64,000 bases of DNA from IMG/VR virus record IMGVR_UViG_3300042922_000346, positions 650 to 64,649 of that record; one strand, written 5' to 3'. Origin of the DNA: a virus. Shown piece after piece: positions 4,135 to 59,753 of this stretch; position 1 is the stretch's first letter; the number at the start of each line of letters is the position of its first letter. The notes beneath the pieces were generated by a model. It made no database searches. It saw only the letters and a list, made by a program, of their open reading frames with translations, and was not told where the DNA came from. A program made the translations under genes and the position numbers.

Positions 4135-4527
4135 ATGAGCGAGAATGAAAATGTTGTATATGAAAAAATCGCAAATGTAGGTGCTAGAATAGATAGGGTT
4201 GAAGAATCAATGGATAAAATAAACCAAAGAATGGATGAATTTGATAAAAAAACAGGTGCGTTAGAACATGAACTATCTAATAGACTTACCAAGATGGAAA
4301 CTAAATTTGATTTCTTTTTAGATATAACTTCTAATAAATTAGATAATTTAGATAAAAAAATGGATAAGTTTATGATAGATGCAAATCAAACAAAGGTTCA
4401 AACACCACCCCCATCCCAAGCGGATACTTTTAAAGAGTGGGGTTTTAAAAAAGGTATGCAAATTCTTGATACCGCTATTTATGGTGGAGTATTATATGCA
4501 ATAGCAAAAGGATTAAAATTATTTTAA
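4135..4527 (+). CDS. XhlA-like coiled-coil protein with C-terminal transmembrane helix (lysis-associated)
   Basis: RBS AAGGAG; N-terminal heptad coiled coil, C-terminal hydrophobic segment ILDTAIYGGVLYAIAKGLKLF; sits immediately upstream of amidase and holin-like genes as xhlA does in PBSX-type lysis cassettes. Confidence 0.45.
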   Translation: MSENENVVYEKIANVGARIDRVEESMDKINQRMDEFDKKTGALEHELSNRLTKMETKFDFFLDITSNKLDNLDKKMDKFMIDANQTKVQTPPPSQADTFKEWGFKKGMQILDTAIYGGVLYAIAKGLKLF

Positions 4528-4546
4528 AAAAGAAGGTAGGGATAAT

Positions 4547-5512
4547 ATGAAAATAGGATGGAGATATGGACATTTAAAAAATGTAGACCAATCTGCTAAT
4601 GGAATATTATTAGAATATGAATTTAATAGATTTTATGGTGCTAGAGTAGTTGAATATTTACAGAAGGATGGAAATGAATTAATTGATTGTACCCCTCCAG
4701 AATCAACTGCTACAATGGCAGATAGTTTAAATTATGGAATAAAGAAAGCCAATGATAATAAAGTAGATTATTTTGTAAGTTTTCATGGTAACTGTTTTAA
4801 TGGAGAAGCTAATGGTTCAGAAGTTATATGTGGTTCTCAAGCAGGAATAGATATAGGAAATAGAATTACAAGTAATTTAGAAAAATTAGGATTTGTTAAT
4901 CGTGGAGCAAAAATGGATACTAGAGGATTAGCTGAAATAAAGAAAACAAATATGACGGCTAATATTATAGAACCATTATTTGTAGATAGCAGAAAAGATA
5001 TTGATTTATTAGATGCTGTAGGAGTAGATTTATTTGCTAGAGCGATAGCAGAAGGTATTGTTGGACATGTTATAAATGTAGTAGAACCAACTCCAGAACC
5101 AGAACCAATTCCAGAAGATAATTCTGTGTTGGATGCTCAACGTAAATTAAATAAATTAAAATTTTACGGAGCGAATGGATTAAGACTTGATGAAGATGGA
5201 ATCATGGGAGCGAACACTATGTTTGCAATAAGAGAGTTTCAATATATAACTGGGTTAAGTATTGACGGTGTTCTAGGTGAGACAACAAAAGGAGCAATAA
5301 ATCATATCCTTAATGATAGACCAATGGTATCTATAACAATTAATAATAATGAGGTTATTGCTATAAGATATTTACAATGGAGATTAGGAATAATTTTTGA
5401 TGGTATATTTGGTAATGGTACAAGGAATGCAGTTATTGGATTCCAATCCAGAAACGGATTATATCAAGATGGAATTGTTGGTAATGATACATGGAAAGTA
5501 TTATTAGATTAG
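4547..5512 (+). CDS. N-acetylmuramoyl-L-alanine amidase (Amidase_3 family) with two C-terminal PG_binding_1 repeats; endolysin
   Basis: Motifs GH..E, DYFVSFHGNCFNGEANGSEV, NRGAKMDTRGLAEIKKTNMTANIIEPLFVDSRKD match the Amidase_3 zinc amidase pattern; two DG(I/V)xGxxTxxAIxxFQ repeats match PG_binding_1; Pro/Glu linker PTPEPEPIPE. Confidence 0.75.
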   Translation: MKIGWRYGHLKNVDQSANGILLEYEFNRFYGARVVEYLQKDGNELIDCTPPESTATMADSLNYGIKKANDNKVDYFVSFHGNCFNGEANGSEVICGSQAGIDIGNRITSNLEKLGFVNRGAKMDTRGLAEIKKTNMTANIIEPLFVDSRKDIDLLDAVGVDLFARAIAEGIVGHVINVVEPTPEPEPIPEDNSVLDAQRKLNKLKFYGANGLRLDEDGIMGANTMFAIREFQYITGLSIDGVLGETTKGAINHILNDRPMVSITINNNEVIAIRYLQWRLGIIFDGIFGNGTRNAVIGFQSRNGLYQDGIVGNDTWKVLLD

Positions 5513-5522
5513 GAGGGTTATT

Positions 5523-5750
5523 ATGGAAACCTCAAAAAAATTAACTTGGGTAATGACTATATTCTTTATTTTTGCTGTTATAGGAATAGGATTAACAGAT
5601 GCTTTATTAAAAACTAATTTATCATATTTATTAGATTATATTATGCCATTAGAAACAACTGTTATGGTAGCATATTTTGGTAAAAGCGGTGTTGAAAATT
5701 TCCAAAAAATAAAGAGTTCTGACAGTACGAGTATTGACCAAACTAAATAA
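5523..5750 (+). CDS. holin-like small membrane protein (75 aa)
   Basis: Two hydrophobic helices then charged tail; immediately follows the amidase. Confidence 0.5.
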   Translation: METSKKLTWVMTIFFIFAVIGIGLTDALLKTNLSYLLDYIMPLETTVMVAYFGKSGVENFQKIKSSDSTSIDQTK

Positions 5751-5766
5751 TGTGAGGTGAAAATAC

Positions 5767-6135
5767 ATGGATTTAACTATAATATATGTGTTATTAATAA
5801 TTATCATAGTTATTGGTTTAAGTTGGTTAAGTAAATATTTAAAGGATAATGATATAGTAGATAGCGAAGATTTACTATTTGCTATGACGATACTAGATTT
5901 ATCAATGAAAATAATAGATGAATTAAATCTTAAAGACGAAGATAAAATAAAGGATATTGCTGAGATAGTTAAGGAATCTGTAGATTATATTAATAAGAGT
6001 ATGAGTGAGGAAGCAGATAAAGAAGTTTGGGCAATAGATTATGCATATAAATTATGTGAAGAAATGGATATAGAATTAACTGATAACAGAAAAGAAATAA
6101 TTATACAGTTAATTGGATTACAGCTTAAAAAATAA
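5767..6135 (+). CDS. small membrane protein (122 aa, N-terminal TM helix, acidic C-terminus); second holin or antiholin candidate
   Basis: N-terminal LTIIYVLLIIIIVIGLSWL helix; last gene before a strong terminator. Confidence 0.45.
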   Translation: MDLTIIYVLLIIIIVIGLSWLSKYLKDNDIVDSEDLLFAMTILDLSMKIIDELNLKDEDKIKDIAEIVKESVDYINKSMSEEADKEVWAIDYAYKLCEEMDIELTDNRKEIIIQLIGLQLKK

Positions 6136-18359: not shown

Positions 18360-20216
18360 GTGGAAAGGATAGATATTTTAGATTTAGTTTATAATAGACT
18401 AGCTATTTTAAACGATAATTCAGATTTTTCAATAAAAGATGATATAGAAGAGAATTTAAAATTAAATGAAATAAATAAATTAAGTTTCTCTATACCTGTA
18501 GATTCTGAAAAGTTTAAATATTTAATTAATGAAAATTTAGTTTATTATAAAAACGAATTATATATAATAAAAACACCAAAACTAGAACATACTCAAAACG
18601 ATGTAAGAACATGTAATATTGAATGTTATCATTTGTCTAGTGGATTACAAAGTATGTTAATAGAACCAATTGTTTCAGAAGATGATACAAGAAATGGTAT
18701 AGCAAAAACAGCAACACAATTATTAACATTAATATTAGATGGTACTGGATGGTCTATTGGTGAAGTTGATGCATTGGATACGGTTAAACGTAGTTTACTC
18801 TGTGATGAACAATCAGTGTTTGATACATTATTACAGGTAGCTGAATTATTTGATTTAAACCTAATATTTTCAGCAAATCCATCTCAAAGGACAGTAAGTT
18901 TAAAAAAGGCTATAGATAGCGGATTTATAATAAGAAAAAATAAAAATTTAAAGAACTTATCTTTACAATATGATAGTAGTGAAATAGTAACTAAATTACA
19001 TGTTTTTGGTGGACAAGATTTAGATACAGGAAATACAATAAGTATTCATGAAGCGTATGAGAGAGATGCGGAAGGAAATATAATATATGAGAATGGTAAT
19101 CCAGTATTACATGAAACCTCTTATATTATAGATTATTCGTATTATTTATCTTTAGGATATACTTTAGATTATATTGAACAACACCCAGAACATTTTTTAA
19201 GAGAACAGACTTGGATAGCTTCTGAATATTTAGTAGCGGATGATTTATATGTTGATGCATTAAAGAAAATGAAAATATTAGCTAAACCAAAAGTTACAGC
19301 TACTATAGATGCTTATGATATGTCGGGAATATCAGAACACAAGACTCATGCTCCAATATTGAGTGAATTAGTTCATATTATAGATGATGATTTTAAACTT
19401 ATATTAGAAGCGAAAATTATAGGTATAAAAAGATATGCAAAAAATCCTAATTTAAAATTAGAAATTTCAAATGAAGTAGAATATGATAGTATGATAAAGA
19501 GATTAATATCTTCTTCTGAAAAATTTAAAAAGGTATTAAATCCTCAAGGTGGAATTAGGTTAGCAAATGATACAGTTAATGGAGGAATAGATACAAGTTA
19601 TATTAAGCTATCATCAACCTCTGGTAATTGGTATACCGACAATAATGGATTTTTAGTATTTGAGAATCCAAATAAAACACAAGCAATAAGAATGGGTAAT
19701 GGTAATATAGATATATCTAATTCAAAAACGCCAAGTGGAAATTATGTGTATACTTCTTTTGGTAATGGTGCTGGATTTAATGCAGATAATATTACAAAAG
19801 GTATTTTAAGTAGTAATAGTATAAAATGGGACTTAGTAAATAATACATTTATGATTACTAACCCTATAGACCCAAATGATTATTTATTAAAATTTGATGG
19901 TTCTCAATTATATATAAAAAACAATATATCCAGTGTTACATGGGAAGGTATACAAAATAAACCAAATTTTGCTACTGTTGCAATTACTGGGAATTATGAT
20001 GATTTAACTAATAAACCAAAAGATAAACATGTCCATATACAGACAACTCCCTCATTAGTATGGACAATAATTCACGATATGAATAAATTCCCTTCTGTCA
20101 CAATAGTTGATAGTGGAGGAAATGAAGTAACTGGGAAGAAAAGATATGTGGACGAAAATACAGTAGAATTAACTTTTTCACCATATGCCTTTTCTGGTAG
20201 AGCATATTTAAATTAA
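18360..20216 (+). CDS. Tal-like tail-tip protein (618 aa), GTG start
   Basis: N-terminus IDILDLVYNRLAILNDNSDFSIKDDIEENLKLNEINKLSFSIPV...YLINENLVYYKNELYIIK matches the N-terminal pattern of siphophage Tal/antireceptor proteins; RBS GAGGTGGG. Confidence 0.5.
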   Translation: MERIDILDLVYNRLAILNDNSDFSIKDDIEENLKLNEINKLSFSIPVDSEKFKYLINENLVYYKNELYIIKTPKLEHTQNDVRTCNIECYHLSSGLQSMLIEPIVSEDDTRNGIAKTATQLLTLILDGTGWSIGEVDALDTVKRSLLCDEQSVFDTLLQVAELFDLNLIFSANPSQRTVSLKKAIDSGFIIRKNKNLKNLSLQYDSSEIVTKLHVFGGQDLDTGNTISIHEAYERDAEGNIIYENGNPVLHETSYIIDYSYYLSLGYTLDYIEQHPEHFLREQTWIASEYLVADDLYVDALKKMKILAKPKVTATIDAYDMSGISEHKTHAPILSELVHIIDDDFKLILEAKIIGIKRYAKNPNLKLEISNEVEYDSMIKRLISSSEKFKKVLNPQGGIRLANDTVNGGIDTSYIKLSSTSGNWYTDNNGFLVFENPNKTQAIRMGNGNIDISNSKTPSGNYVYTSFGNGAGFNADNITKGILSSNSIKWDLVNNTFMITNPIDPNDYLLKFDGSQLYIKNNISSVTWEGIQNKPNFATVAITGNYDDLTNKPKDKHVHIQTTPSLVWTIIHDMNKFPSVTIVDSGGNEVTGKKRYVDENTVELTFSPYAFSGRAYLN

Positions 20217-20227
20217 GGTAAGGAAAG

Positions 20228-23200
20228 GTGAATATAATGTTACATTTTGATAGTTTAGATTTAGTGCAAAATGAATTACTTAATGCTAGAATACAGAATC
20301 TAGCAACTGCTCCTGTCAACCCAGTAGAAGGTCAAATTTATTATAACACAGCACAAAAAGCATTCATGGGATGGAATGGAACTTCATGGATAAATATAAG
20401 TTTAATATTTACTAATAAAGCAATATTGGATGCTATTACAGCTTCATATACAACCGAAGAACAAACAAAATTATCTGGTATTAGTACTGGAGCAAATAAA
20501 GTTGAACAAAGTGGCACGAATGGAAATATAAAAATAGACGGAGTTGAAAAAACAGTTTATACTCTTCCTGCAACTCTTCCTGCTACTATAATATCACAAG
20601 ATAGTTCCCATAGAATGGTGACAGATACCAATATTTCAACATGGAATGCAAAAGCATCAACCACTTTAGCTACTACTTCCGTTAATGGATTAATGTCAAC
20701 GACTTACGCTTCAAAATTAGAAGGTATTTCTGCAAATGCTAATAAAGTAGAACAAAGTTCAACTAATGGAAATATTAAAATAGATGGAGTAGAAAAGGTA
20801 GTATATACACATCCTACAGGTACAAATCCTCATGGGACTACAAAGAGTGATGTAGGATTAGGTAACGTTGAAAATAAAACATCTGCAACAATAAGAAGTG
20901 AAATAACTAGTGCAAATGTTACAACTGCATTGGGATTTACACCTGTAAAAAACGGAGGTAATGTTCCAGAATTTAGATATGGAACAGAAGCAAGTAGACC
21001 ATCTGCTACTGGGAGTAATTTAGTTTATTTTTCAGATGAAGGTAAAATATATAAAGATATAGCTGTTGGAACATGGAAACAAATGGGTGGACAAGATTTA
21101 TCTCCAGCTACAACAACTGAATTAGGATTAATTAAAGTTGGAGCAAATTTATCTATAGGTACAGATGGCACATTAAATGCGAATGATAACCCTGCAAGTT
21201 TTATAAGAAAACAGGAAAGATTTATAGGTGGAGTTGGACAAACAGTATTTAATTTGACAAAGGGTGTTTATCAACCAAATACTGGAGCAATGACATGGTA
21301 TTTAAATGGTAGTAAACAAGATGATTCTGCTTTAGATGAAATATCCTCAACTAGTGTTGGTTTGCCATCTGGACTTCCAGACGGAATGGAAATAATGTTT
21401 GAATATTATCAAGTTACAAATTGGAATCCATTTCCATATCATGCAAGTGAACATTTGACAGATGGAGATGACCCAATTCCAAAGGCAACTAGTGTGGCTG
21501 ATGGATTAATGCCAAAAGAAGCTGTAACAAAACTTAGTGGAATTGCTGATAATGCTAATAATTATATTCATCCTACAGGGGATGGTAATTTACATGTTCC
21601 TGCAAATGGAACTACTAATAATGGTAAAGTTCTTAAAGCAGGGAGTACGGCAGGCAATATTGCTTGGGGAACTTTAACAGCTAGTGATGTTGGAGCGATT
21701 GATACATCTGATGTAGTAACAACCGCAACTGCAAACAAAATATTAAGATTAAATGCTTCATCTCAACTTCCTGCATCAATAACAGGCAATGCAGTAACAG
21801 CTACCACTTTAGCTACATCTAGAACAATTGGTGCTTCTGGAGATATAACAGCGACAGGAGTAGCTTTTAATGGTGGTACGAATATTACACTAGTAACTAC
21901 TCTTTCTAATACTGGAGTAACAGCAGGAACTTATCCGAAGGTTACAGTAGATGCTAAAGGTAGGGTAACTGGAGGAACTAGTTTATCTGCTAGTGATATA
22001 CCAGTATTAACAGCATCTAAAATAAGTGATTTTGATTCAACTGTTGTAGCACATTCTATAAGTGATTTTGCTTTACCAACAACTGATTTTAATGTAAACA
22101 ATCATAAAATAACTAATCTTGCTACTCCTACAAGTGGCTCAGATGCGGTAACAAAAGACTATGCAGATGCATTAAGGTCTGGATTAAGTTTAAAAGACCC
22201 AGTTAAAGCTACAACTACAGCAAATATAACCTTGAGTGGTACTCAAACCATTGATGGAATTGCACTTGTAGTAGGAGATAGAGTACTTGTAAAAAACCAA
22301 ACAACAGCATCTCAAAATGGTATATATATTGTAGCTAGTAGTACATGGACAAGAGCGACCGATGCAGACAATACGCCAAGCAATGAAATACGAGAAGGTA
22401 TGACTTGTTGGGTAAATCAAGGTACGACATATGGTAATACAAGATGGGTAATGACTACAGCAGACCCAATTACACTTGGAACAAGTTCTTTGGTTTTCAC
22501 AAAAGATTTCCAAGCTAGTGATATAGTTGCAGGAACAGGATTGACTAAAAGTGGAAGTACTTTATCAATTACAAATGTTGGAACAGCAGGAACTTATACA
22601 AAGGTAACTACTAATGCACAAGGACAAATAACTAGTGGTACGACATTAGATGCTACAGATATTCCAGATTTAGATTGGAGCAAAATTACAACAGGTAAAC
22701 CTACTACATTATCTTTATATGGAATTACAGATGCCGTTAATACATCTGACGTAGTTACTACTGCTACGGCTAATAAGATATTAAAATTAAACGCAAGTTC
22801 TCAATTGCCAGCTTCTATAACAGGCAATGCGAATACAGCAACAACATTAGCAACTGCAAGGACTATAACTATGAGTGGAGATGCTACATCCTCTGCTATA
22901 TCATTTAATGGTGGTGCAAATATATCTATTCCGTTGACATTGTCTGCTTCTGGAGTTACAGCAGGGAATTATTCTAAAGTAACTGTAGATAGTAAAGGTA
23001 GAGTTACAGCAGGATTAAGTATGGCTAGTTCAGATATTACAACGGCATTAGGATTCACTCCAGCCAAAAAAGTTACATTCAATGTTGGAAATGGTACAAA
23101 TAATGAAATAACTGTAACACATGGATTAGGAACAATGGATTTTACTGTATCAGTAAGAGCAAATGCAACACCATACGAATTTGTTACTGTTGGAATATTG

Positions 23201-23284
23201 CCAATAGATAGTAATAGTGTAAAGTTAAGATTTGGTTCTTATATTCCAGCAATTAATGAATTTAAGGCGGTTATTACAGGTTAA
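20228..23284 (+). CDS. long tail fibre (1018 aa) with internal duplicated modules
   Basis: Two ~24-aa ANKVEQS.TNGNIKIDGVEK.VYT repeats near N-terminus and two ~100-aa SDVVTTATANKIL.LNASSQLPASITGNA.TATTLAT...VTAG.Y.KVTVD.KGRVT repeats. Confidence 0.6.
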   Translation: MNIMLHFDSLDLVQNELLNARIQNLATAPVNPVEGQIYYNTAQKAFMGWNGTSWINISLIFTNKAILDAITASYTTEEQTKLSGISTGANKVEQSGTNGNIKIDGVEKTVYTLPATLPATIISQDSSHRMVTDTNISTWNAKASTTLATTSVNGLMSTTYASKLEGISANANKVEQSSTNGNIKIDGVEKVVYTHPTGTNPHGTTKSDVGLGNVENKTSATIRSEITSANVTTALGFTPVKNGGNVPEFRYGTEASRPSATGSNLVYFSDEGKIYKDIAVGTWKQMGGQDLSPATTTELGLIKVGANLSIGTDGTLNANDNPASFIRKQERFIGGVGQTVFNLTKGVYQPNTGAMTWYLNGSKQDDSALDEISSTSVGLPSGLPDGMEIMFEYYQVTNWNPFPYHASEHLTDGDDPIPKATSVADGLMPKEAVTKLSGIADNANNYIHPTGDGNLHVPANGTTNNGKVLKAGSTAGNIAWGTLTASDVGAIDTSDVVTTATANKILRLNASSQLPASITGNAVTATTLATSRTIGASGDITATGVAFNGGTNITLVTTLSNTGVTAGTYPKVTVDAKGRVTGGTSLSASDIPVLTASKISDFDSTVVAHSISDFALPTTDFNVNNHKITNLATPTSGSDAVTKDYADALRSGLSLKDPVKATTTANITLSGTQTIDGIALVVGDRVLVKNQTTASQNGIYIVASSTWTRATDADNTPSNEIREGMTCWVNQGTTYGNTRWVMTTADPITLGTSSLVFTKDFQASDIVAGTGLTKSGSTLSITNVGTAGTYTKVTTNAQGQITSGTTLDATDIPDLDWSKITTGKPTTLSLYGITDAVNTSDVVTTATANKILKLNASSQLPASITGNANTATTLATARTITMSGDATSSAISFNGGANISIPLTLSASGVTAGNYSKVTVDSKGRVTAGLSMASSDITTALGFTPAKKVTFNVGNGTNNEITVTHGLGTMDFTVSVRANATPYEFVTVGILPIDSNSVKLRFGSYIPAINEFKAVITG
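21701..22007 (+). repeat. first copy of ~300-bp intragenic tail-fibre repeat (second copy 22741-23040)
   Basis: Protein-level duplication ~80 % identical read from translation. Confidence 0.5.
22741..23040 (+). repeat. second copy of ~300-bp intragenic tail-fibre repeat
   Basis: See 21701-22007. Confidence 0.5.
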
Positions 23285-23311
23285 ATTAAGAGATAGGTTG
23301 GAGGGAAACTA

Positions 23312-24517
23312 ATGAAGATATTTGATTTTGAATTTAAATTTAATGGATTTGATATATGGCATAAAGGAAATCAAGGAGCAGGAAGTGGACTAGATGCAGA
23401 CACTCTTGACACTAAACAAGCTTCTGATTTCCAACAATTAACAAATGGTGGAGCATATGGTATATTCCCTTCTACTGCTAGTACAATGGTTGGAAATGAA
23501 TATAATTTATTACTAAATGCTCATACAAGAAGTGGACTAACTATTACTCAAAGCGGAACAGGACTATTAAGTTCACCTAATACATTATTTGATGGAACAG
23601 TAGTCGCTACTTATTCTACTGATGGTATAAATCCAACAAACCCATATGTATTACTTATAACAGGTTTACCAAATACTCATACTCAAACAGGTGGTGTTTT
23701 AGGTTGGAGTTCAAGATATTGGTATCCAAGTAAATATAAAATTGAAGTATATGATTCTTATAATAGTATAGGGTGGAAAACAATTGTTGACCAATCTGTT
23801 ATAGATAAACCAACGAAAGATTTATTGATACCAATTTATCCAACTTATTCTGGTAGCTTTACGCAAATAAAAATTACAATATATGAATCAACGGTTGGAG
23901 CGCAAGGAGCAAACGGATATAATAAATGGGGTTTAAGTGAGTTATTTTTTTGTCACCCCGAAGCTATGAGAGTTCATCAATATTTACATGTTGATAGCGC
24001 AGATAGATTAGAAACTCCAAGGAATATAAATGGAGTTCCCTTTGATGGACAGTCAGATATAACAATAACAGCAAACCCAAATACTCACACGCATACTATT
24101 GCAAATGTAACAAGTTTACAAACAGCTTTAGATAGTAAAGCACCATCTGGATTTGGATTAGGTACAGTTGCAACTACTGCTACTGTAGATTGGAATAATT
24201 ATGTTACTACAGGATTTTTCATGGGGACAGGATTATTAAATGAATGTGAAGGTGGTTCATGGAGATTTTGTATGGTAATAAGACACAATGATTCATATGT
24301 ATCTCAAACGATGTGGGACTTTAATGGTACAAGAATGTGTCAAAGGAATAAAGTTAATGGAACATGGACAACTTGGAGAAGATTAGATGTTACAAAACTA
24401 AGTGAGTTAGAAAATGATATTGGAGCAGGAGGTACGGGTGGATATCCAAAAATAACTACGAGTAGTACTGCTCCATCATCTCCAGCAATAGCTGATATTT
24501 GGTGGAAATTATTATAA
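23312..24517 (+). CDS. tail fibre / receptor-binding protein (401 aa)
   Basis: RBS GGAGGGAAAC; last structural gene before lysin. Confidence 0.5.
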   Translation: MKIFDFEFKFNGFDIWHKGNQGAGSGLDADTLDTKQASDFQQLTNGGAYGIFPSTASTMVGNEYNLLLNAHTRSGLTITQSGTGLLSSPNTLFDGTVVATYSTDGINPTNPYVLLITGLPNTHTQTGGVLGWSSRYWYPSKYKIEVYDSYNSIGWKTIVDQSVIDKPTKDLLIPIYPTYSGSFTQIKITIYESTVGAQGANGYNKWGLSELFFCHPEAMRVHQYLHVDSADRLETPRNINGVPFDGQSDITITANPNTHTHTIANVTSLQTALDSKAPSGFGLGTVATTATVDWNNYVTTGFFMGTGLLNECEGGSWRFCMVIRHNDSYVSQTMWDFNGTRMCQRNKVNGTWTTWRRLDVTKLSELENDIGAGGTGGYPKITTSSTAPSSPAIADIWWKLL

Positions 24518-24531
24518 AGGAGAAAGGTATT

Positions 24532-25518
24532 ATGGAAGATATGAATAAATTTAAATTAGGTGCAATACCTTCTGGAAAAGACGAAAGAGATTTTAATATA
24601 TCTAAATTAGTGGCTACAGTAAACGTATTTCCAAGTGAATTTTGTTTAGATTTAGATGGAATAGAAATACAAGACCAAGGAGAGGTAGGGTGTTGTGTTG
24701 GAGAGTCTTTAGCATATACAAGATTTTTAACAGAGAAGAAACAAACAGCAAAAACAGATTTATTTAGTGTAGGATTTATATATGGTACAAGAGAAGAAAC
24801 AGATTATCAAGAAGATGGAATGCGACCAAGAGAAGCATTAAAAAATCTTCAAAAATATGGTACTGTACTTCATAAAGATTTCCCTTATTTAGAAGAAGTT
24901 CCAAATATAATTAATAGAGTAAGACAACAAAATAATGTATTATTACCAAAAGCAGAACCTTTTAGAATTAGTGCTTATGCAAAATTAGATAATGAATTTT
25001 CAATAAAAAATGCGTTAATGCAAATTGGAGCAGTAACAACAATGATTGCTGTAGATTGGGCATTTATGTGTACAGGTAGTGACGGATTAGTTCCTACTAA
25101 TTTAGTATTTAATCCATATATGGGATTCCATCAAATTACTATAGTAGGATGGAGAGAAGATGGAAAATGGATATGTTTAAATAGTTGGGGAAAAGGATGG
25201 GGAGATAATGGTATAGTGTATTTAGATAAGAGTAAAACATTAGAATCATGGTCATTAACAGATACTATTGTTCCACAACCAGACCCAGAACCAATCACTA
25301 AATGGTATAGAGTACAAGTAGGTGCTTATCATAATTTAGAATATTGTTTAGCTTTTCAGCAAGAATTAAAAGACAAAGGTTTAGAAACTTATTTAGTTAA
25401 GATAGATGAATGGTATAAAGTACAATTAGGAGCATATCAAAACAAAGATTATTGCTATGCGTTTTTAGCTAAAGTACACGAAATGGGATACACTGATGCA
25501 TTTGTAGTATATTATTAA
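24532..25518 (+). CDS. lysin: papain-like (C1-type) cysteine peptidase domain fused to tandem SPOR repeats (ORF track begins at 24499; ATG at 24532 preferred)
   Basis: QGEVGCCVGES (Cys), GFHQITIVGW (His), LNSWGKGWGDNGIVYL (Asn/Trp) in papain order; PQPDPEP linker; C-terminal WYRVQVGAYHNLEYCLAFQQEL...WYKVQLGAYQNKDYCYAF is a duplicated SPOR-like motif; RBS AAAGGAGAAAGG before 24532. Confidence 0.6.
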   Translation: MEDMNKFKLGAIPSGKDERDFNISKLVATVNVFPSEFCLDLDGIEIQDQGEVGCCVGESLAYTRFLTEKKQTAKTDLFSVGFIYGTREETDYQEDGMRPREALKNLQKYGTVLHKDFPYLEEVPNIINRVRQQNNVLLPKAEPFRISAYAKLDNEFSIKNALMQIGAVTTMIAVDWAFMCTGSDGLVPTNLVFNPYMGFHQITIVGWREDGKWICLNSWGKGWGDNGIVYLDKSKTLESWSLTDTIVPQPDPEPITKWYRVQVGAYHNLEYCLAFQQELKDKGLETYLVKIDEWYKVQLGAYQNKDYCYAFLAKVHEMGYTDAFVVYY

Positions 25519-25601
25519 TCTTTATAAAACTAAGGTTTTAATAACATTTTATAAAACAAACAAGGTAGATAATTGGAGTAAATAAGAGATATACGGAGCA
25601 T

Positions 25602-25646
25602 GAGAGAGGTCACTTTATTAAATTAAAGTGTACTCTCTCTTTTTAT
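25602..25646 (+). terminator. rho-independent terminator after lysin gene
   Basis: GAGAGAG..CACTTTA-ttaaat-TAAAGTG..CTCTCTC two-part stem followed by TTTTT. Confidence 0.6.
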
Positions 25647-25655
25647 GTTGAAAGG

Positions 25656-26615
25656 ATGGTTAAAATGCCAGAAAGAAGTAAAAGAATTGAAACTTATGAT
25701 AAAAATAAGCTTTCTTTAATAAATGCACAAACATTACAAGATTATAGAAGATATAAGATAGATATGGAGATTAGAGAATTATCCCCAAAAACAGTTTATA
25801 ATTATGAATTAGATTTGTTCCAATGGTTTACTTATATTTATGAGAATCAAGGTAATATTTGTGTTAGAGAAATAATTGAAGATGATATTGTTGAGTTCTT
25901 ACATTTTTGTAAAACACAAGGTAATAATAGTAGAAGAATGAAAAGAAGAATGTCCTCTATTAGTGCTTTTTATAAATTCTTGAGAAAGAAAAAACTAGTT
26001 AAAGAAAATCCTATGGAAATGATTGATAGACCAAGAAAAGATACAGATATAGTTGAGCAAACTTACCTATCTCAAGAACAAGTAGCTTTAATGAGAGATA
26101 AATTAATTGAAAATAAAGATACTCAATTAGAACTTTACGCAAATTTATCCTTAAGTACTATGGCAAGAGTAAATGCAATTTCAAATATAAGATGGGAACA
26201 AATTGACTTTGATAAACGTAAAATTGATAAGGTATTAGAAAAAGAACAAAGATACGTTACTTTAAGATTTAATGAAAAATGTAAAGATTTATTTTTACAA
26301 TTAAGAGAAGAAAGAAGGAAAAACAATATTATAACTGAATATGTATTTAGTAGCTTTTATGGTGGACAATATAATAAAGTTAGTAATGTTACGTTAAATG
26401 ATTGGTGTAAAAAGATTGGAGAAATGATTGGAGTAGAATCTTTACATCCTCATGATTTCCGTCATACTTCTGCTACTTTATTAAAAAATTCTGGTATGCC
26501 TTTAGAAAGTATTAGTAAATTATTAAATCATATGGGTACGGATGTAACTTTAAAATTTTATATAAAAGAAGATGAAGAAAAGATACAACAAGAAAAAGAT
26601 AAATATGATTTTTAA
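25656..26615 (+). CDS. int: tyrosine site-specific recombinase (phage integrase / Xer-like)
   Basis: N-terminal SAM-like core-binding region; catalytic box HPHDFRHTSATLL (HxxR) and C-terminal LKFY tyrosine region; RBS AAAGGATGG. Confidence 0.8.
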   Translation: MVKMPERSKRIETYDKNKLSLINAQTLQDYRRYKIDMEIRELSPKTVYNYELDLFQWFTYIYENQGNICVREIIEDDIVEFLHFCKTQGNNSRRMKRRMSSISAFYKFLRKKKLVKENPMEMIDRPRKDTDIVEQTYLSQEQVALMRDKLIENKDTQLELYANLSLSTMARVNAISNIRWEQIDFDKRKIDKVLEKEQRYVTLRFNEKCKDLFLQLREERRKNNIITEYVFSSFYGGQYNKVSNVTLNDWCKKIGEMIGVESLHPHDFRHTSATLLKNSGMPLESISKLLNHMGTDVTLKFYIKEDEEKIQQEKDKYDF

Positions 26616-26648
26616 AAAGAGAGGAATTTCCTCTCTTTTATTTTAATA
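26611..26648. terminator. bidirectional intrinsic terminator shared by convergent integrase and polymerase genes
   Basis: AAAAAGAGAGGA-att-TCCTCTCTTTT 11-bp stem flanked by A-run on one side and T-run on the other; both stop codons lie in or at the stem. Confidence 0.75.
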
Positions 26649-29600
26649 TATTATATGATTTAAGAACTTTTTCAAATTGGTCTGTTACTATCCACCTTCC
26701 ATTTGTAAATCTTCTTTTAGCTTCTTCTTTTATATCTGTTAATCTTAACATATCTAATTTTTCAAATGGAAACTTTTCAAACACTTGTTTCTTTAATTTT
26801 ATTTTAGCTATTTTACCATCTTGCAGTTTATATAATTGTAATATCGGATGTGTGTAAGTTGTATCTATATTTACAACCATTACAATAGATGGGTCAGCAT
26901 TTGGGATAGTTATTTTAGAGTATCCTAGATATTCTAAATCTATTTTTAACTTAATATCTAATGGATAATCTTCATTAGGTAAATCTTTTTCAAATTGTTT
27001 TAATAATGGTATTCTCTTTTGTTTTGTTTTATCTGTGTGCTTTTTATCATATTTATTTTTACCTTTCATAACTTCTAAATATATTGCCATAAGTTTTTTA
27101 GGTAATCCAAATTCTTTAAAATAATCTATATTAATTAATATTTTCATTTCTTTTGAGTTCGCAACTTTATTATCTTCAATATCAATCAATAAATCTACAA
27201 AAGTATCATATTGTTTATCTTTTAATTCGTATAATTTATCTGAGGTGGTTTTACCAATATATTTTATAGATGCTAAAGATGGATTAATCATATTTTTCTC
27301 TTTGTTAGCAACAAATCCACGATTATCATATCTAAAAGTATATTCTCCTAAATTAATATTGAAACCCTTATCCATTTCACTAATTAACGCACTAACCTTA
27401 TCTTTGTTGCCTTTTTCAGAATAATGATTCAATACAACCTCATAAAACTCATATGGATAATTAGCTTTTAAATATGCTCCATCTAAACTATCACAAGATA
27501 CACAATATGCGTGGCTGGCATTAAATCCATAGGCAACTGAGTTTTCTATAATTGTCCATACCTGTAAACATTTTTCTTCAATTGCTTCTTGGGTTAATAA
27601 TGGTTCTTCTTGTCTTATTTTATCTCCAAATCCTTTAATGAAGGTATCTTTTAATGGTAATATAATTTCTGGTTTCTTTTTACTGATAGCTTTCATTATA
27701 GTATAAGTTTCTGATGCAGGAAATCCTGCATAACTTAAAGTAGCCATTATTTGTTCTTGATATAATACGAAACTATAAGGTAACTCTTCTGTTTGTAAAA
27801 GCTTATCAAATGCTTTGATTTCATATGAGAAGTCTTCTCTTTTTTCAAATATACCATACATAGATTTAAATGACGGTCTTATTCCTGCGATAAAGGCACA
27901 TAATTCAGAAATGTTTTGTGCTTTATATCTTTGCATTTTTTCTCTTGTTTTTTCTTGTTCTGTTTGATTAATACATAATGTAAATCCTTTACTATATATA
28001 TCCCATATTTTATTATCTTTATTGGAAATCTCTATAAGTTCAGTAACGTCAAGAGATGGCATAGAAATTCTTTTATATACTTTATCATTAATTAAAACAA
28101 CATCAACCTTTAGTATATCGTTCTTTAGAAACTTATATTTTTCTGCAATTCTTCCATCTATAACAGTAGTTATAACTTCCTTATCATTCGATTCTGTCTT
28201 ACATTTAATTAATCCTATTTCAGCTTTTATATCTCCAGAATATAATAAATGTCCGCAAGGGTGTGCTTTTTTATCCGATATAATACCTTCATATTTTTTA
28301 CTGGATTCAATAAGTGGCATATATTCTTCATCAACATAATCTTCAAGTACAATCAAGTCTTTATCATCATCTTCTGCATTTGCTAAAGCTGTTTCATATT
28401 TTTCTAATTGTTGAGATACCGCATTAGCTATATTATAATCTAAATTTTGAGATTTAGCATATAATTTAAACGCAGATTTCTTTTTAAATGTCCCAAATGC
28501 AATCATAGGATAAGAATGTCCTTCTCCTAATAATGCTGTTTGGGCATCTATAAATGGTTGTTGTTCTCCTACGTTTAAATCTAAATCTGGTAATGATTTT
28601 GTGTCTAATATTCTAGTGGTACTCATAAATCTTTCTGGATACATGTGAACTTTAGCAGATATTCTATCTACTTTTGTGAACCCAAGAAGCTTATTTATAT
28701 AGAAGCTGACACCGCTACCACGACCACTCTTTGTAATAATACCTCCACGATTTTCTACTGCATCTTTAACCATATAATAATCAATTAAAAAATAATCAGC
28801 CATACCAGTATCTACAACACATTTAACTTCATTTGCTATTTCATGTTGATATTTAGGATGTAACATGGTAGGTACAGTAGATTTAATATTATCCCATTGT
28901 TCTTTTATTAATTTAATAAATAAAATATCCTTTTCGGTTTGAGTGAGATTAGGATATAATGTAGGTAATTTTATATCTTTATTAAATGTAATATCTTCAA
29001 ATGTTAATAATATATTTGTATTATCCATTGCTCTAAAAATTTCTTCATCTGATAGAATACCTTGTTTTTTAAATCTATTAAATGCTTCTTTACCTGTTGG
29101 ATAATCCATATACCAACCATCTTCTGATTCATACCTAATACCTTTTGCTTCAAGAATATTATCTCTTTCAACAGTATCTTCTTGAGATATGAAATGACTA
29201 TCACATCCCATTATAATGTCTATTCCATAATTTTTGCTTATACTTAATATTTTAGTATTAATATCTTTTTGACTTTGAGTGTTATGATATTGTACTTCAA
29301 GCATAAAGTTTTTACCAAAATGATTTTGTAATTTTTGAATAATTTCTAATGTGTCAGCGTAGTCATATTGCCAAAAGGCTATACAGGCGGTAGTAATAAA
29401 TACATCATCTTTTGGTAAATTCAATAATAACTCAAGGTCAAGTCTTGGTTTATGATAATATCCTGTTATATTTGCTTCTGATAAAGCTAAGTTTATTGCC
29501 TTTCTTCCATTTTCATTTTTGGCTATAAGTACAATATGATTGTTAGTGTTATCCTTTTCAAATCTATCTTTTACCCAATAAGCTTCTGTAGCAAATATAA

Positions 29601-31043: not shown

Positions 31044-31721
31044 TTAAATTATTTTTGTTATTATTTCATCTATTAATCCGTATTCTAATGCTTCTTCTGC
31101 TGTCATCCACCATTCTTTAGTGTAGTTTTTATTCATTAGTTTTTTTGAAATAGTAGTGTGATTTACAATATATTTTTTAACTAATTTTTCTCTTTTTATA
31201 ACAAATGGAAAGTAATCTATAAATTTACCTATAGAATTTTGATTGCCTGTAGTTCCATCATGTATAAGAAAAGTACTATTAGGATAACACGCTTTATAAT
31301 GACATGCCATTGGTAATAATGCCCCCATAGAATAAGCATGAGATATTACTATGCCGTATACTGGTGTTTTACTTGCTTTAATAATATCTATTAAGGCAAA
31401 TCCATATCTATCATCTCCTCCATCACAAGCAATATATAGTTTAATAGGTATTCTTTCTTCTTCTGGAAGTTCTCTTTCATCATCTTCTTGATTCATTTTT
31501 ATAATCGGTAGGATATATTTATTAGCTGTACTTTCATCAAGTACCCCAACTATTTTAATTTCTCTTCTTGCATAATCAACACAAGAATCTGTTTGAACAG
31601 TATCTTCTCCATCACTTAATGCAATTAATAATTCTGCTAATTCTTCATCTGTCATGTCATCAAGTTTATTAACCTTCTGTAATTTTGATTTTAATATATT
31701 AATTTTATTTATATTTTTCAT
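31044..31721 (-). CDS. ClpP-like serine protease (S14 family)
   Basis: PIKLYIACDGGDDRYGFALIDIIKASKTPVYGIVISHAYSMGALL (active-site Ser region), FLIHDG (His), C-terminal MTAEEALEYGLIDEII all in ClpP order. Confidence 0.7.
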   Translation of the reverse strand: MKNINKINILKSKLQKVNKLDDMTDEELAELLIALSDGEDTVQTDSCVDYARREIKIVGVLDESTANKYILPIIKMNQEDDERELPEEERIPIKLYIACDGGDDRYGFALIDIIKASKTPVYGIVISHAYSMGALLPMACHYKACYPNSTFLIHDGTTGNQNSIGKFIDYFPFVIKREKLVKKYIVNHTTISKKLMNKNYTKEWWMTAEEALEYGLIDEIITKII

Positions 31722-33371: not shown

Positions 33372-33893
33372 TTAATATCTTAATATTTTAGTTCCTTTAA
33401 TTAAGCTGTCTTTAACATTTATAACATTTTGATTTTTACTACCTCTAAATTTTAATGTAATGTCTCTTTGAGTTATATCAAATCTACCATCAACTAAAAC
33501 ATCACATAATTCTAATAATCTTAATTTATTACTATCTTCTAATATTTCCTCGTAAGTAAATCCAGAATAAATCCAAATATTTTTTGTTGGACATGCGTGA
33601 TGAAACATTTGTAAAAATAAAAAACAGTCATTGGCAGAGAAAAAGGGGTCACCACCGCTCAGAGTAATGCCTTGAATTAAAGGGTTTGTTTCAACATATT
33701 TTATAAGGTCTAATTGCATTTCATAATCAAAAGGTTTACCATATTGAAAGTTGTGAGTGAGGGGATTATGACACCCCTCACAAGCATGTAAACAACCACT
33801 AATAAATACTGTTGTTCTTACGCCCTCACCATCAACTAAACTTTCATAATTTATTCCACTAACATACATCTTTAATAATCCTTCTTGGTTCAT
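33372..33893 (-). CDS. nrdG: anaerobic ribonucleotide reductase activating protein (radical SAM)
   Basis: CLHACEGCHNP CxxxCxxC cluster; overlaps nrdD 3' end by 35 nt. Confidence 0.85.
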   Translation of the reverse strand: MNQEGLLKMYVSGINYESLVDGEGVRTTVFISGCLHACEGCHNPLTHNFQYGKPFDYEMQLDLIKYVETNPLIQGITLSGGDPFFSANDCFLFLQMFHHACPTKNIWIYSGFTYEEILEDSNKLRLLELCDVLVDGRFDITQRDITLKFRGSKNQNVINVKDSLIKGTKILRY

Positions 33894-36147
33894 TTAAAAT
33901 GGTTATTCCTTCTGCTGTGAAATTAGTATATTTACTATGCTTTACTCTATCTAGTGTTTCTGCAATTTTACCTTTATTAAAATTTCTATAATCTGTTGTT
34001 AAATAACCTGTAACCCTTCTAAGTTGTTGAATATTTTTACTACCACAAACTGGACATGCATCATTGAACTCACCTTGATAACCACAATCTAAACAACTAT
34101 CAATCGGAAAATTAAATGCTAAATATGGAATATCTAAATCCATAGCATAATCTATAATTGCTTCTATTGCTTCTTCATTATTAATTATTGAGTTTTCTAA
34201 TTCGATATAAGTTATACATCCTCCTGTTGGATATTTGCAGAATGGTGCTTCTATTTTTAATTTATCAAAAATAGATACTTCTTGCCATACTGGAACATGA
34301 TGTGAATTAGTTAAATATTCTCTATCGGTAACATTTGGAATAATACCGTATTCCTCTTTAAGTTTTTCCATCATGGTTTTACATAAATTCTCCGCAGGAG
34401 TAGCATATGCACTAAAGTTTAAATTGTATTTGTCACTTGCTATCTTAGCATAATCATGAATATATTTAACTACTGATAATGCAAAAGCGTGAACTTTTTC
34501 ATCTTCCGCATGATTGTTTCCAAACAATGCTTCACACATTTCAGCAATACCAATATATCCTATTGCGTTAGTATTGTGTTTCATTGCTTCATAAACACTT
34601 TTATCAATAACTTTATCATATCCCATCATTGTTCCATTTTTATACATGAAAGGTGCTGATTTGGGAGATTGACTACAAATATGATAAAATCTATCAATTA
34701 ATCCTATTACAGCTAACTCTAATACTTCATCTAGTTCTTTCCAAAAGGCTTCTAAATTATTTTTATCATGAAGAATACCCAACTTAGGAAGATTAATTGT
34801 TATTGGAGATACATTTCCTCTGCCAACTTTAACATATGAATTACTAAATCTATCGTATCCTAACATTGTTCTACATCCCATAGTTGCCATGAAAGTATCT
34901 GGATTATTAGGGTCTTCTATATTCATTGACCAATCTCCATTTGCCCAATTAGGATAAATTCTTTTTGTCATGGATTTTATAGCTAATTTTTTAATAGTAT
35001 AATTTGGTGTATTGGGTTTATCATTTATCCCTTTTTTATATTGGAAAATTGAAATAGGGAATATTGAAGTTAAATTATACTTACCAATTCCATCTATACT
35101 AGCTTTAAATATCCATTCATTAATCCATCTTCCTTCTGGACTAGTATCTCTACCTAGGTTAATTGATGTGAATGGAAGTTGAGAACCGGGACGACTCTCA
35201 AGGGTATTAAGGTTATGATATAATGCTTGAGCAGATTGTAATCCTTCTTTATTAGTCATATCGTAAGCATATTCCCAAACAGCAGGATTTAACTCTTTAT
35301 ATCTTTTATCCTCAACTTTTATTTTATATTTACCATATTGCTCAGTGATTTCTTCGTCTGTAAGTCTTGCAATATATTTTAATCCAACCTTATAATGTTT
35401 GGTAAAAGATTTAATAACATGTGGTGCTAAATCAAAATCCAAATGAACAGACCCAACTCCACCAAACTGTACTTGACTCTGACATTGAAAAATAACAGCC
35501 ACAAGTTGCATTGCAGTACTTATTGAATTTGCTCCTCGAACATCTCCATTCCTAGTTACAAACCCATTATTTAATGTTTGTGGTAAATCGCAAAATAAAC
35601 AATTATGCATTCCTACATCATAAGAATCTAAGTCATGAATATATATTCTATTTTGTTTGTGTGCTTGGGAAACAGAAGGTCTTATTAAGTTATTTAAAGC
35701 AAAATCTTTATGAAGAACTCCTGCACTTTCAAACTTTCTTCCTCCAAAAGAATATTCATCTACATTAGCATTAGAATTTTGAATATTTTTACAAAGTAAA
35801 ATATCAGATATTTTTTTATTAATTTCACTATTTTTATGCCTATCTATAGTTCGTTGGGTTCTATATTTAATATATTCTCTGGCAACATCTTTATATTGAC
35901 TTGCCATTAACTTGTTCTCAACAATTGTTTGGACATATTCTATATCTACTATTTCTTGTTGCATTTTTTCAATACCTTCTGCAATTTGATTAGCGTAATT
36001 ATAGTCTACCTCTTTAATTTTTATATCTGGATGACCTTCTTTCCCAAGTTTAATAGTATAAATCATAGCTGATATAATTGCATCTACAATCTTTTGTTTA
36101 TTAAATGGTTTTAGTCTTCCGTCACGTTTCACAATTTGTCTTATCAT
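33859..36147 (-). CDS. nrdD: anaerobic ribonucleoside-triphosphate reductase
   Basis: N-terminal ATP-cone; C-terminal Zn ribbon CLDCGYQG...CPVCGS and glycyl-radical motif RVTGYL. Confidence 0.9.
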   Translation of the reverse strand: MIRQIVKRDGRLKPFNKQKIVDAIISAMIYTIKLGKEGHPDIKIKEVDYNYANQIAEGIEKMQQEIVDIEYVQTIVENKLMASQYKDVAREYIKYRTQRTIDRHKNSEINKKISDILLCKNIQNSNANVDEYSFGGRKFESAGVLHKDFALNNLIRPSVSQAHKQNRIYIHDLDSYDVGMHNCLFCDLPQTLNNGFVTRNGDVRGANSISTAMQLVAVIFQCQSQVQFGGVGSVHLDFDLAPHVIKSFTKHYKVGLKYIARLTDEEITEQYGKYKIKVEDKRYKELNPAVWEYAYDMTNKEGLQSAQALYHNLNTLESRPGSQLPFTSINLGRDTSPEGRWINEWIFKASIDGIGKYNLTSIFPISIFQYKKGINDKPNTPNYTIKKLAIKSMTKRIYPNWANGDWSMNIEDPNNPDTFMATMGCRTMLGYDRFSNSYVKVGRGNVSPITINLPKLGILHDKNNLEAFWKELDEVLELAVIGLIDRFYHICSQSPKSAPFMYKNGTMMGYDKVIDKSVYEAMKHNTNAIGYIGIAEMCEALFGNNHAEDEKVHAFALSVVKYIHDYAKIASDKYNLNFSAYATPAENLCKTMMEKLKEEYGIIPNVTDREYLTNSHHVPVWQEVSIFDKLKIEAPFCKYPTGGCITYIELENSIINNEEAIEAIIDYAMDLDIPYLAFNFPIDSCLDCGYQGEFNDACPVCGSKNIQQLRRVTGYLTTDYRNFNKGKIAETLDRVKHSKYTNFTAEGITILNEPRRIIKDVC

Positions 36148-36227: not shown

Positions 36228-36785
36228 TTATTTAATAATATATCCACTAATAGCTTGTCTTCCCATTTTTAATGTTCTTTTTTTATAATTATACGTTGAT
36301 TCATTTGATAATCTAGGAACAAATCTATCTAGTCTATTATTTTTATTAAAATCATTACCACCTCTATCTGAAACAGTTACAATTCCAATCCCTTCTAAAT
36401 AGATTTTTGTTCCTAATGGATAAAAATTACTTGCCACCATACCATCAACTAATTTTTTACCTTCACATGTTCCAACATGTCCACCATTTTCTTCTGGTAA
36501 ATCAGTATAGTGAGTAACTGTAAAATCAACAACTTGGATTGTTGGTGGCATACCACCTCTACTAAAAGATTGTTGATTTGTAGGCATAGTTATTGTTTTT
36601 ACATCTGCTCTATTTATTTCTTTACTTGGTAAAGTTGCTGTAAGTGGCAAAATTACTTCTTCTATTTTAATATTATTATTTTCTTGTTTAGGGACATCAA
36701 CACTATTACTTGTTTCACTATGATAAGATAAAAGTAATGATACAACAATTAACGATACCATAGCTGTTTTATTTGTTTGTTTCAA
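36228..36785 (-). CDS. secreted 3D-domain protein (MltA/YuiC-like cell-wall lytic domain)
   Basis: N-terminal signal/TM VSLIVVSLLLSY; C-terminal VASNFYPLGTKIYLEGIGIVTVSDRGG...NRLDRF matches 3D-domain conserved Asp pattern. Confidence 0.55.
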   Translation of the reverse strand: MKQTNKTAMVSLIVVSLLLSYHSETSNSVDVPKQENNNIKIEEVILPLTATLPSKEINRADVKTITMPTNQQSFSRGGMPPTIQVVDFTVTHYTDLPEENGGHVGTCEGKKLVDGMVASNFYPLGTKIYLEGIGIVTVSDRGGNDFNKNNRLDRFVPRLSNESTYNYKKRTLKMGRQAISGYIIK

Positions 36786-58368: not shown

Positions 58369-58375
58369 TAAATTA

Positions 58376-59481: not shown

Positions 59482-59485
59482 AACA

Positions 59486-59695: not shown

Positions 59696-59705
59696 CTTCC
59701 TCCTT

Positions 59706-59734: not shown

Positions 59735-59753
59735 GGGGATTAACCCCTTGAAT

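Follow-up and report, generated by a model that had tools for sequence, protein, structure and literature searches.

Among the papain-like peptidases, cell-wall roles have been assigned to NlpC/P60, CHAP and the amidase cluster, not to family C1 (PMC10318531), and the N5 domain of mycobacteriophage LysA is C39-like (PMC3314691). The SPOR domain is a known and rare wall-binding domain of endolysins (1.3% in phages of bacilli), so far seen only together with amidases (PMC11674121). Here we describe a gene encoding a papain-family (C1) peptidase fused to a SPOR domain, hereafter the C1-SPOR gene, in a 64,000-nucleotide stretch of viral DNA (IMG/VR record IMGVR_UViG_3300042922_000346, positions 650 to 64,649). 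This stretch, called the window below, takes up almost all of a metagenomic contig of 64.6 kb with about 28% G+C. Among 8 million full texts, none was found that connects Peptidase_C1 with endolysins or SPOR, and C1 was not found on the lists of endolysin catalytic domains that steer enzybiotic design and the automatic annotation of lysis genes. As judged from the sequence and the structural model, the C1-SPOR protein is probably an accessory lytic peptidase, dependent on holin and docking on glycan that the amidase has denuded, and not the primary endolysin. An accessory lysin of an uncharacterised family fits better than the undescribed endolysin class targeting septal peptidoglycan, which had been proposed in the initial annotation of this DNA.

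The gene, its signals and the parts of its product are as follows.

24532..25518, + strand: C1-SPOR gene, 328 amino acids plus stop, an intact open reading frame (ORF) according to the ORF list and Pfam
24519..24522, + strand: Shine-Dalgarno sequence GGAG (inside AAAGGAG, 24516-24522), 9 nt before ATG 24532
24532..25266, + strand: papain-family cysteine peptidase domain (PF00112, MEROPS C1A-like), residues 1-245, from Pfam, the PDB profile search and the AlphaFold2 (AF2) model
24676..24696, + strand: QGEVGCC, from Gln49 (24676-24678, oxyanion hole) to Cys55 (24694-24696, nucleophile), invariant columns
25129..25188, + strand: His200 (25129-25131), Asn217 (25180-25182), Ser218 and Trp219 (25186-25188), completing the papain catalytic set
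25267..25305, + strand: flexible Pro/Glu-rich interdomain linker, residues 246-258, IVPQPDPEPITKW (AF2)
25306..25512, + strand: single SPOR domain (PF05036), residues 259-327, from Pfam and the AF2 secondary structure
25602..25644, + strand: terminator-like hairpin followed by TTTTT, preceding the integrase gene, with an RNA folding energy of -21.5 kcal/mol

The reading frame at 24532-25518, as initially annotated, is real and intact on the + strand, and the closest homologs of its product reach E 1e-228. In an alignment of 30 sequences the N-termini of homologs match ATG 24532 and not the in-frame upstream TTG 24499. The ribosome-binding site and these N-termini favour ATG 24532 over both the TTG 24499 start (339 amino acids) and the 338-amino acid call of the public record. 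The stop codon of the upstream tail-fibre ORF lies at 24515-24517, leaving a 14-nt gap before the ATG. The downstream hairpin (z -5.8; none of 200 shuffles is equally stable) makes the C1-SPOR gene the last gene of the + strand late/tail operon.

The assignment of the N-terminal domain to the papain family, already made in the initial annotation, is borne out by Pfam, by the PDB profile search and by the AF2 model together with Foldseek. Pfam places Peptidase_C1 on residues 46-235 (E 5.1e-11, 43.5 bits against the curated cut-off of 20.7), and its scan of the whole protein at E<=1 returns only Peptidase_C1 and SPOR, with no CHAP, NlpC/P60, C39, C39_2 or C47; thus neither CHAP nor NlpC/P60, named initially as the competing assignments, appears. 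In PHROGs the N-terminal domain corresponds to phrog_16701 ('peptidase') and the SPOR part weakly matches an 'endolysin' family. The best match of a 30-homolog profile in the PDB is xylellain (3OIS, E 1.2e-33, aligned from residue 6), followed by cathepsins K, B, S and L, mite allergens and plant papains. The AF2 model, based on a 30-homolog alignment, has a mean pLDDT (predicted local distance difference test) of 91.9, with values above 90 over most of the peptidase domain. The 50 best Foldseek matches of this model in the PDB are all C1A enzymes (probability 1.0), with xylellain 3OIS again at the top (E 1.9e-16, template modelling score about 0.75 on the target), and no CHAP or NlpC/P60 structure is found among these 50. 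The two-lobe papain fold, with a helical L lobe and a beta-barrel R lobe, is borne out by AF2 and Foldseek.

The active-site residues follow in the papain order, Gln, Cys, His, Asn, then Ser-Trp, and the three motifs singled out in the initial annotation do hold the true catalytic residues. Among 30 homologs no variation occurs at Q49, C55, H200, N217 and S218, and hardly any at W219; Q49 and C55 are also invariant in the 12 close homologs. These six positions correspond to papain Gln19, Cys25, His159, Asn175, Ser176 and Trp177, and the Gln-to-Cys spacing of 6 residues equals that of papain.

Secreted C1A zymogens typically have a signal peptide, an I29-type propeptide and conserved disulfides, none of these being strictly defining. 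A hydrophobic-segment scan of the C1-SPOR protein found no hydrophobic N-terminus or signal peptide, and there is no Pfam match to an I29-type propeptide (E<=1). In the chain, about 8 residues precede 'LGAIPS..D.RD(F/Y)', the conserved segment that opens the mature domain and corresponds to xylellain from residue 29 onward. C55 is the only conserved cysteine in the 30-homolog alignment, hence there are no conserved disulfides. In terms of sequence, the absence of all three features fits an enzyme that would fold already active in the reducing cytoplasm.

The linker behind the peptidase domain is of the type usual for lysins: residues 246-254 (PQPDPEPIT) have AF2 pLDDT <50 and are modelled as disordered, and the amidase of the same phage has a similar PEPEP-type linker. 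The wall-targeting SPOR module fused to the C1 peptidase is confirmed by Pfam and AF2, but the tandem arrangement initially ascribed to it is not, as there is a single Pfam stretch and a single fold unit. Pfam SPOR covers residues 259-326 (E 5e-11, 43.2 bits against a cut-off of 21, model positions 5-75 of 76), and residues 259-327 form one beta-alpha-beta-beta-alpha-beta unit (RNP-like) in the AF2 model, with strands 259-266, 286-291, 294-302 and 324-327 and helices 269-281 and 305-317. The two similar halves of about 35 residues (WYRVQVGAY..., WYKVQLGAY...) are an internal repeat of one SPOR fold. NCBIfam gives weak matches to the SPOR regions of FtsN and RlpA, under their cut-offs, and nothing else.

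Strand 1 (RVQVGA) carries the predicted glycan-contact residues Gln262 and Ala265. In the C1-SPOR subfamily, R260, V261, Q262 and G264 are invariant and A265 is nearly invariant. The strand-1 pattern Gln-x-x-Ala/Ser contacts glycan in RlpA (Q270/A273), FtsN (Q251/S254) and DamX, and stem peptides would clash with the SPOR binding surface (PMC6895207), which is why SPOR reads peptide-free glycan.

A catalytic domain followed by a linker and a wall-binding domain, and the lack of any signal or signal-anchor sequence, correspond to the modular plan of Gram-positive phage lysins. We infer the timing, the holin dependence, the amidase-to-SPOR hand-off and the substrate as follows. Transcription of the gene, which closes the tail operon, would be late, and the protein would accumulate in the cytoplasm late in infection; having no signal peptide, it would reach the wall only once the holin(s) permeabilise the membrane, crossing through the holin lesion. 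The Amidase_3 endolysin of the phage (4547-5512) would strip stem peptides and massively produce denuded glycan. SPOR would then dock the peptidase on peptide-free glycan, that is, on wall already under degradation or at septa, where denuded (peptide-free) glycan is enriched. There the peptidase would cut peptide bonds, either in peptidoglycan cross-links and bridges or in wall-anchored and S-layer proteins, and its action may speed or complete the collapse of the envelope.

The amidase just mentioned belongs to a canonical lysis cassette at 4135-6135 (+ strand), 18 kb upstream of the C1-SPOR gene.

4135..4527, + strand: XhlA-like lysis accessory protein, coiled coil and C-terminal hydrophobic tail (weak match to phrog_1193 'hemolysin', E 1.7e-4)
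4547..5512, + strand: endolysin, Amidase_3 and two PG_binding_1 (Pfam E 1.8e-16 and 1.7e-23; phrog_435 'endolysin', E 1.7e-55)
5523..5750, + strand: small membrane-protein ORF, 75 amino acids, hydrophobic segment at residues 4-31
5767..6135, + strand: small membrane-protein ORF, 122 amino acids, hydrophobic segment at residues 1-26

Neither of the two membrane-protein ORFs matches a holin family in Pfam or PHROGs, so they are labelled candidate holins by position and topology only. A Pfam scan covering the window apart from the 61453-62214 protein found no further peptidoglycan-hydrolase families, the exception being the 3D-like product of 36228-36785 (phrog). The cassette stands in the middle of the structural arm, directly before the tape-measure gene; that site is normally taken by tail-assembly chaperones, and lysis cassettes usually follow the tail fibres.

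Given the Amidase_3 endolysin cassette, the C1-SPOR protein is not the sole lysin. The initial reading of it as the principal endolysin, a new class lysing the host alone via septal peptidoglycan, is consistent with the catalytic domain-linker-wall-binding layout without a signal peptide, with the location of the gene after the tail-fibre gene, the usual site of lysis genes in Bacillota phages, and with the relatives in which C1 is fused straight to Amidase_2. We nevertheless consider it quite unlikely, as the same genome encodes an endolysin with Amidase_3 and two PG_binding_1 domains, with an XhlA-like gene and two membrane ORFs alongside, and as the phage relatives examined have a canonical hydrolase beside the C1 gene or fused to it (in one contig, L004, 10 kb off). 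Moreover, SPOR binds peptide-free glycan (PMC6895207), so that an amidase must act first, except at septa. What holds of the proposed class is thus the C1 catalytic domain, undescribed in phage lysins; the role of sole or primary endolysin, the second SPOR domain and the uniqueness of the architecture do not hold.

The last point follows from the size of the family. A word-indexed search of 5.8 billion proteins yielded 30 relatives, most of which are C1+SPOR proteins of 326-338 amino acids, the others being C1+Cu_amine_oxidN1, C1+Amidase_2, C1+Glucosaminidase+SLH and C1+Big_1+SPOR. An exhaustive HMMER search of 1.84 billion cluster representatives (50% identity) yielded 564 clusters at E<=1e-30, and Pfam domains were counted over 143 of the best 150 cluster representatives. 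Peptidase_C1 is matched by 135 of these 143, as well as by all 79 distant viral relatives. The extra domains of the 143 representatives are listed below.

SPOR: 42 of 143
Cu_amine_oxidN1: 22 of 143
SLH: 10 of 143
PG_binding_1: 2 of 143
Amidase_2: 2 of 143
CW_binding_2: 1 of 143
PG_binding_3: 1 of 143
Glucosaminidase: 1 of 143
Peptidase_M23: 1 of 143

With C1+SPOR in at least 42 of the 143 representatives, the architecture is not unique to this phage. The C1 module is combined with at least six wall-binding modules and with three peptidoglycan-hydrolase domains; at the level of domain composition, a single catalytic module that recurs with many wall anchors and other murein hydrolases is the hallmark of how Gram-positive lysins and autolysins evolve. 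IMG/VR contains at least 371 more distant viral C1 genes, mostly single-domain, 245-290 amino acids long and without N-terminal extensions; in the 79 distant viral relatives Cu_amine_oxidN1 is present in 10, SLH in 2 and Amidase_2 in 1. Uncharacterised phage proteins of the same fold are also found in BFVD, labelled 'Peptidoglycan binding-like', 'Copper amine oxidase' and 'N acetylmuramidase'. A scan of Clostridia and Bacilli genomes with SPOR-only patterns gave 297 SPOR matches, and none of the 80 loci kept extends beyond query residue 223 into C1; a scan of this kind says little about C1 in bacterial genomes.

Two C1 family members among the cluster representatives have a Pfam LAGLIDADG_3 domain. 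In one protein, P0050 (705 amino acids), a LAGLIDADG-type intein is apparently placed exactly at the C1 catalytic cysteine ('QGSVGS|C...intein...N|CVPHS'); inteins usually occupy active sites of important proteins.

As for the substrate, the domain combinations point in two directions. Domain content, namely the joining of C1 to Amidase_2, Glucosaminidase or M23, speaks for a peptidoglycan endopeptidase, and the ordinary C1A active site, the SLH, CWB2 and Cu_amine_oxidN1 anchors and the precedent of Cwp84 argue, by analogy, for a wall or S-layer protein substrate. In Clostridioides difficile the S-layer precursor is cleaved by Cwp84, a C1A protease anchored to the wall through CWB2; Cwp84 has a signal peptide and a propeptide and is a housekeeping enzyme of the host.

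The second direction leads to an alternative in which the protein is a lysis-stage protease for the S-layer or wall-anchored proteins that hold the envelope after the murein is cut, a Gram-positive counterpart of LysB and the spanins. The C1A group consists of ordinary protein endopeptidases, to which all structural neighbours of the C1-SPOR protein belong; the frequent partners in its family, Cu_amine_oxidN1, SLH and CW_binding_2, are anchors of S-layer and wall proteins in Clostridia and Bacilli, Cwp84 is a precedent, and one distant viral C1 gene adjoins a gene for a chagasin-type (I42) inhibitor. On the other hand, where C1 is fused to Amidase_2, Glucosaminidase or M23 the protein resembles a classical lysin in which two catalytic domains both cut peptidoglycan, and SPOR targets glycan strands, not protein layers. 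We therefore regard this alternative as possible and rather doubtful. A broader proposal, which we make tentatively, covers both substrates: propeptide-less C1A enzymes may be an unrecognised catalytic class of phage lysins and bacterial autolysins, cutting either a peptide bond of peptidoglycan or S-layer/wall proteins, with product-guided amidase-to-SPOR recruitment in the C1-SPOR subfamily.

The reading of the C1-SPOR protein as an accessory lysin also draws on the gene neighbourhoods of its relatives.

L002 (61-kb phage contig; ThyX and 3D genes shared with the window): tail genes, C1-SPOR, Amidase_2, Phage_holin_6_1
L005 and L010: C1-SPOR, Amidase_2, small transmembrane or XhlA-like ORFs
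L003: Amidase_2+Cu_amine_oxidN1, ORF with multiple transmembrane segments, C1-SPOR
L006: XhlA-like, C1-SPOR, Amidase_2-like (E 4e-20), ORF with two transmembrane segments
L007: C1+Cu_amine_oxidN1, XhlA, NLPC_P60
Thermoanaerobacterium phage THSA-485A: GH25 lysin Tsac_2839, then C1A peptidase Tsac_2838
L092: holin_4_1, then fused C1+Amidase_2
L004 (247-kb contig): C1-SPOR immediately following a Band_7 gene (locus 9019-9939); Amidase_2+SH3_3 gene at a distance of 10 kb

An amidase is present in all seven phage-borne C1-SPOR genomes examined, and two non-SPOR relatives pair with NlpC/P60 or GH25. The co-occurrence of C1-SPOR and amidase is suggestive, the sample being tiny and amidases being common.

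The gene for one of the distant viral C1 proteins (among L092-L171) has as a neighbour a gene for a chagasin-family papain inhibitor (Inhibitor_I42, E 1.4e-13), a hint that in some phages a dedicated inhibitor restrains the protease; a motif search for the locus of this neighbour did not find it.

The same neighbourhoods bear on a role in the virion, where the protein would be a tail enzyme opening the wall locally, perhaps at septa, at infection. The C1-SPOR gene lies in the tail operon directly after the tail-fibre gene (14-nt gap), and the commonest neighbours of distant viral C1 genes are Laminin_G_3 and other tail-fibre or baseplate genes. However, the protein has no structural or tail-attachment domain and is a free 328-residue enzyme-linker-wall-binding protein, as endolysins are; the next genes in its relatives encode amidase and holin, and the tail already has a Prophage_tail (Tal-type) protein at 18360-20216. 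A virion-associated enzyme is thus very unlikely.

Several observations weigh against an accessory lysin. In the window the C1-SPOR gene lies 18 kb from the amidase and the holin candidates and does not adjoin them, unlike the C1 genes of L002, L003, L005, L006, L007, L010 and L092, which sit beside holin or holin-like genes in lysis cassettes. As an endolysin in the functional sense the protein thus qualifies only in part, being neither the main hydrolase nor encoded beside a holin in this genome. The amidase partnership in relatives may reflect the mere commonness of amidases in Bacillota phages. A lysin or holin is found within four genes in just 13 of 79 distant viral C1 loci by a low-sensitivity local search, these 13 being concentrated among the closest relatives; 150 immediate neighbours of distant viral C1 genes include 9 murein hydrolases, 2 holins, many tail-fibre genes and some giant-virus genes. 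We know of no C1-family enzyme that cleaves peptidoglycan, none was found in the literature, and canonical C1A enzymes cut ordinary L-peptide bonds. Finally, a close C1-SPOR relative (P0031, L172 6001-6996, E 1e-118) is located in an ordinary bacterial chromosomal neighbourhood, on a 195-kb contig next to genes for UvrD helicase, a non-ribosomal peptide synthetase and a transporter, and has no signal peptide. The family is, therefore, not exclusively phage-borne. The layout of P0031 resembles that of the signal-less mother-cell lysin CwlC.

A host-type autolysin carried as cargo, of the sporulation or mother-cell type like CwlC and with no dedicated role in phage lysis, would agree with such a signal-less relative among chromosomal genes and with the first definition of SPOR in sporulation-related proteins (PMC11674121). 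Still, most of the contexts examined are phage lysis cassettes, and the gene in the window belongs to the late operon and precedes its terminator, which is not where a separately transcribed cargo gene would lie; this makes this explanation extremely unlikely.

The remainder of the window consists of two arms. The + arm (141-26615) carries the structural genes, among them the following.

6296-11950, + strand: tape measure, PhageMin_Tail
+ arm: BppU_N gene
18360-20216, + strand: Prophage_tail (Tal-type) protein
23312-24517, + strand: tail-fibre protein, directly upstream of the C1-SPOR gene
25656-26615, + strand: tyrosine integrase, after the C1-SPOR gene

The - arm serves replication and nucleotide metabolism, encoding DNA polymerase III alpha, ClpP, NrdD/NrdG, ThyX, gyrase A/B, a RecD-like helicase and NAMPT; no tRNA genes were found in the window. 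The polymerase shares 38-43% identity with its counterparts in Geobacillus, Bacillus and Lactococcus siphophages and in a gut phage. Megablast of positions 20000-28000 against 50,697 phage records gave no match, and the phage is thus without a close sequenced relative. The anaerobic ribonucleotide reductase NrdD (E 4.9e-151) and its activase NrdG, encoded at 33372-36147 (- strand), point to an anaerobic host in Bacillota, and the host is probably a low-GC, anaerobic member of this phylum.

Several other genes of the - arm deserve mention. At 36228-36785 (- strand), in the early/replication arm, a 185-residue protein is encoded whose N-terminus resembles a signal peptide and whose C-terminal domain is 3D/RlpA-like (phrog_9810, E 2.6e-17); it may be secreted and act on the wall. 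On the related contig L002 a Pfam '3D' gene (14242-14703) is likewise found close to ThyX. An SPFH/Band_7 membrane protein is encoded at 38297-39145 (- strand), and a Band_7 gene also precedes the C1-SPOR gene on L004, possibly by coincidence. The replication arm also holds a ClpP-family protease gene at 31044-31721 (- strand), well away from the head genes and beside an NT5C-type 5'-nucleotidase. Genes for NAMPT (59754-61154), a cytidylyltransferase-like NMN (nicotinamide mononucleotide) adenylyltransferase (58843-59481) and a NUDIX hydrolase (57838-58368) form an NAD+ salvage/reconstitution set at 57838-61154 (- strand); such sets have been reported to counter NAD-depleting defence systems. 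In the 253-residue protein encoded at 61453-62214 (- strand), an N-terminal signal-like segment is followed by about 150 residues of Ser/Thr-rich 'KPSTSTT' repeats, then by a region rich in Tyr, Gly and Asn and by a transmembrane anchor at the C-terminus, and after its gene an 85-residue protein with two transmembrane segments is encoded at 62538-62795.

If the C1-SPOR protein is active on walls, it would give lysin engineering against anaerobic Bacillota a new class of thiol peptidase, and would offer a simple test of whether SPOR lets one lytic enzyme follow the product of another. The amidase-to-SPOR hand-off, if true, would be an ordered two-enzyme relay not described for Gram-positive phages. 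A substrate among the S-layer or wall proteins would suggest that the lysis of Gram-positive hosts has a 'third step'; should the peptidase be inactive on walls, it is one more uncharacterised phage protease.

Among enzymes of known structure, xylellain, the C1A cysteine protease of Xylella fastidiosa (3OIS), shares with the C1-SPOR protein the Gln/Cys/His/Asn arrangement and an aligned N-terminal 'IP..D.RD(F/Y)'. The identity is about 20%, and xylellain is bacterial, has about 28 residues before the aligned region and no wall-binding domain, whereas the C1-SPOR protein starts essentially at the mature domain, has SPOR and is phage-borne. Cwp84 is likewise a wall-tethered papain-family protease of a clostridial-type bacterium, and one representative of the family described here has CW_binding_2; unlike the phage protein, Cwp84 is secreted with a signal peptide and a propeptide and is an enzyme of the host.

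The closest protein among deposited phage genomes is Tsac_2838 of THSA-485A ('peptidase C1A papain'), with 36% identity over residues 5-261. It differs in being 277 amino acids long, in lacking SPOR and in having a muramidase, not an amidase, as its partner, and is known from automatic annotation only; in the titles and abstracts listed for papers naming this phage, its lysis genes are not the subject.

With the amidase-SPOR enzymes (CwlC of B. subtilis; Amidase_2/3-SPOR endolysins of Bacillus and Geobacillus phages such as PlyGspY412) the C1-SPOR protein shares a single C-terminal SPOR domain targeting a lytic enzyme to the wall. In those enzymes SPOR is attached to the amidase that makes its own ligand, whereas here it is attached to a peptidase and the amidase is separate. 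The CHAP (LysK, PlyC), NlpC/P60 and C39-like N5 (mycobacteriophage LysA) endolysins have the same order of catalytic domain, linker and C-terminal wall-binding domain and no signal peptide; further likenesses to these clan-CA endolysins are the papain-like Cys-His fold and, in relatives of the C1-SPOR gene, the location in lysis cassettes and the pairing or fusion with amidases (PMC3314691, PMC10318531). In distinction from all of them, the catalytic domain of the C1-SPOR protein scores solely as Pfam Peptidase_C1. The C1-SPOR protein thus combines a familiar modular lysin plan with a catalytic family not yet described for phage lysins, and is a member of a sizeable uncharacterised family, not a one-off.

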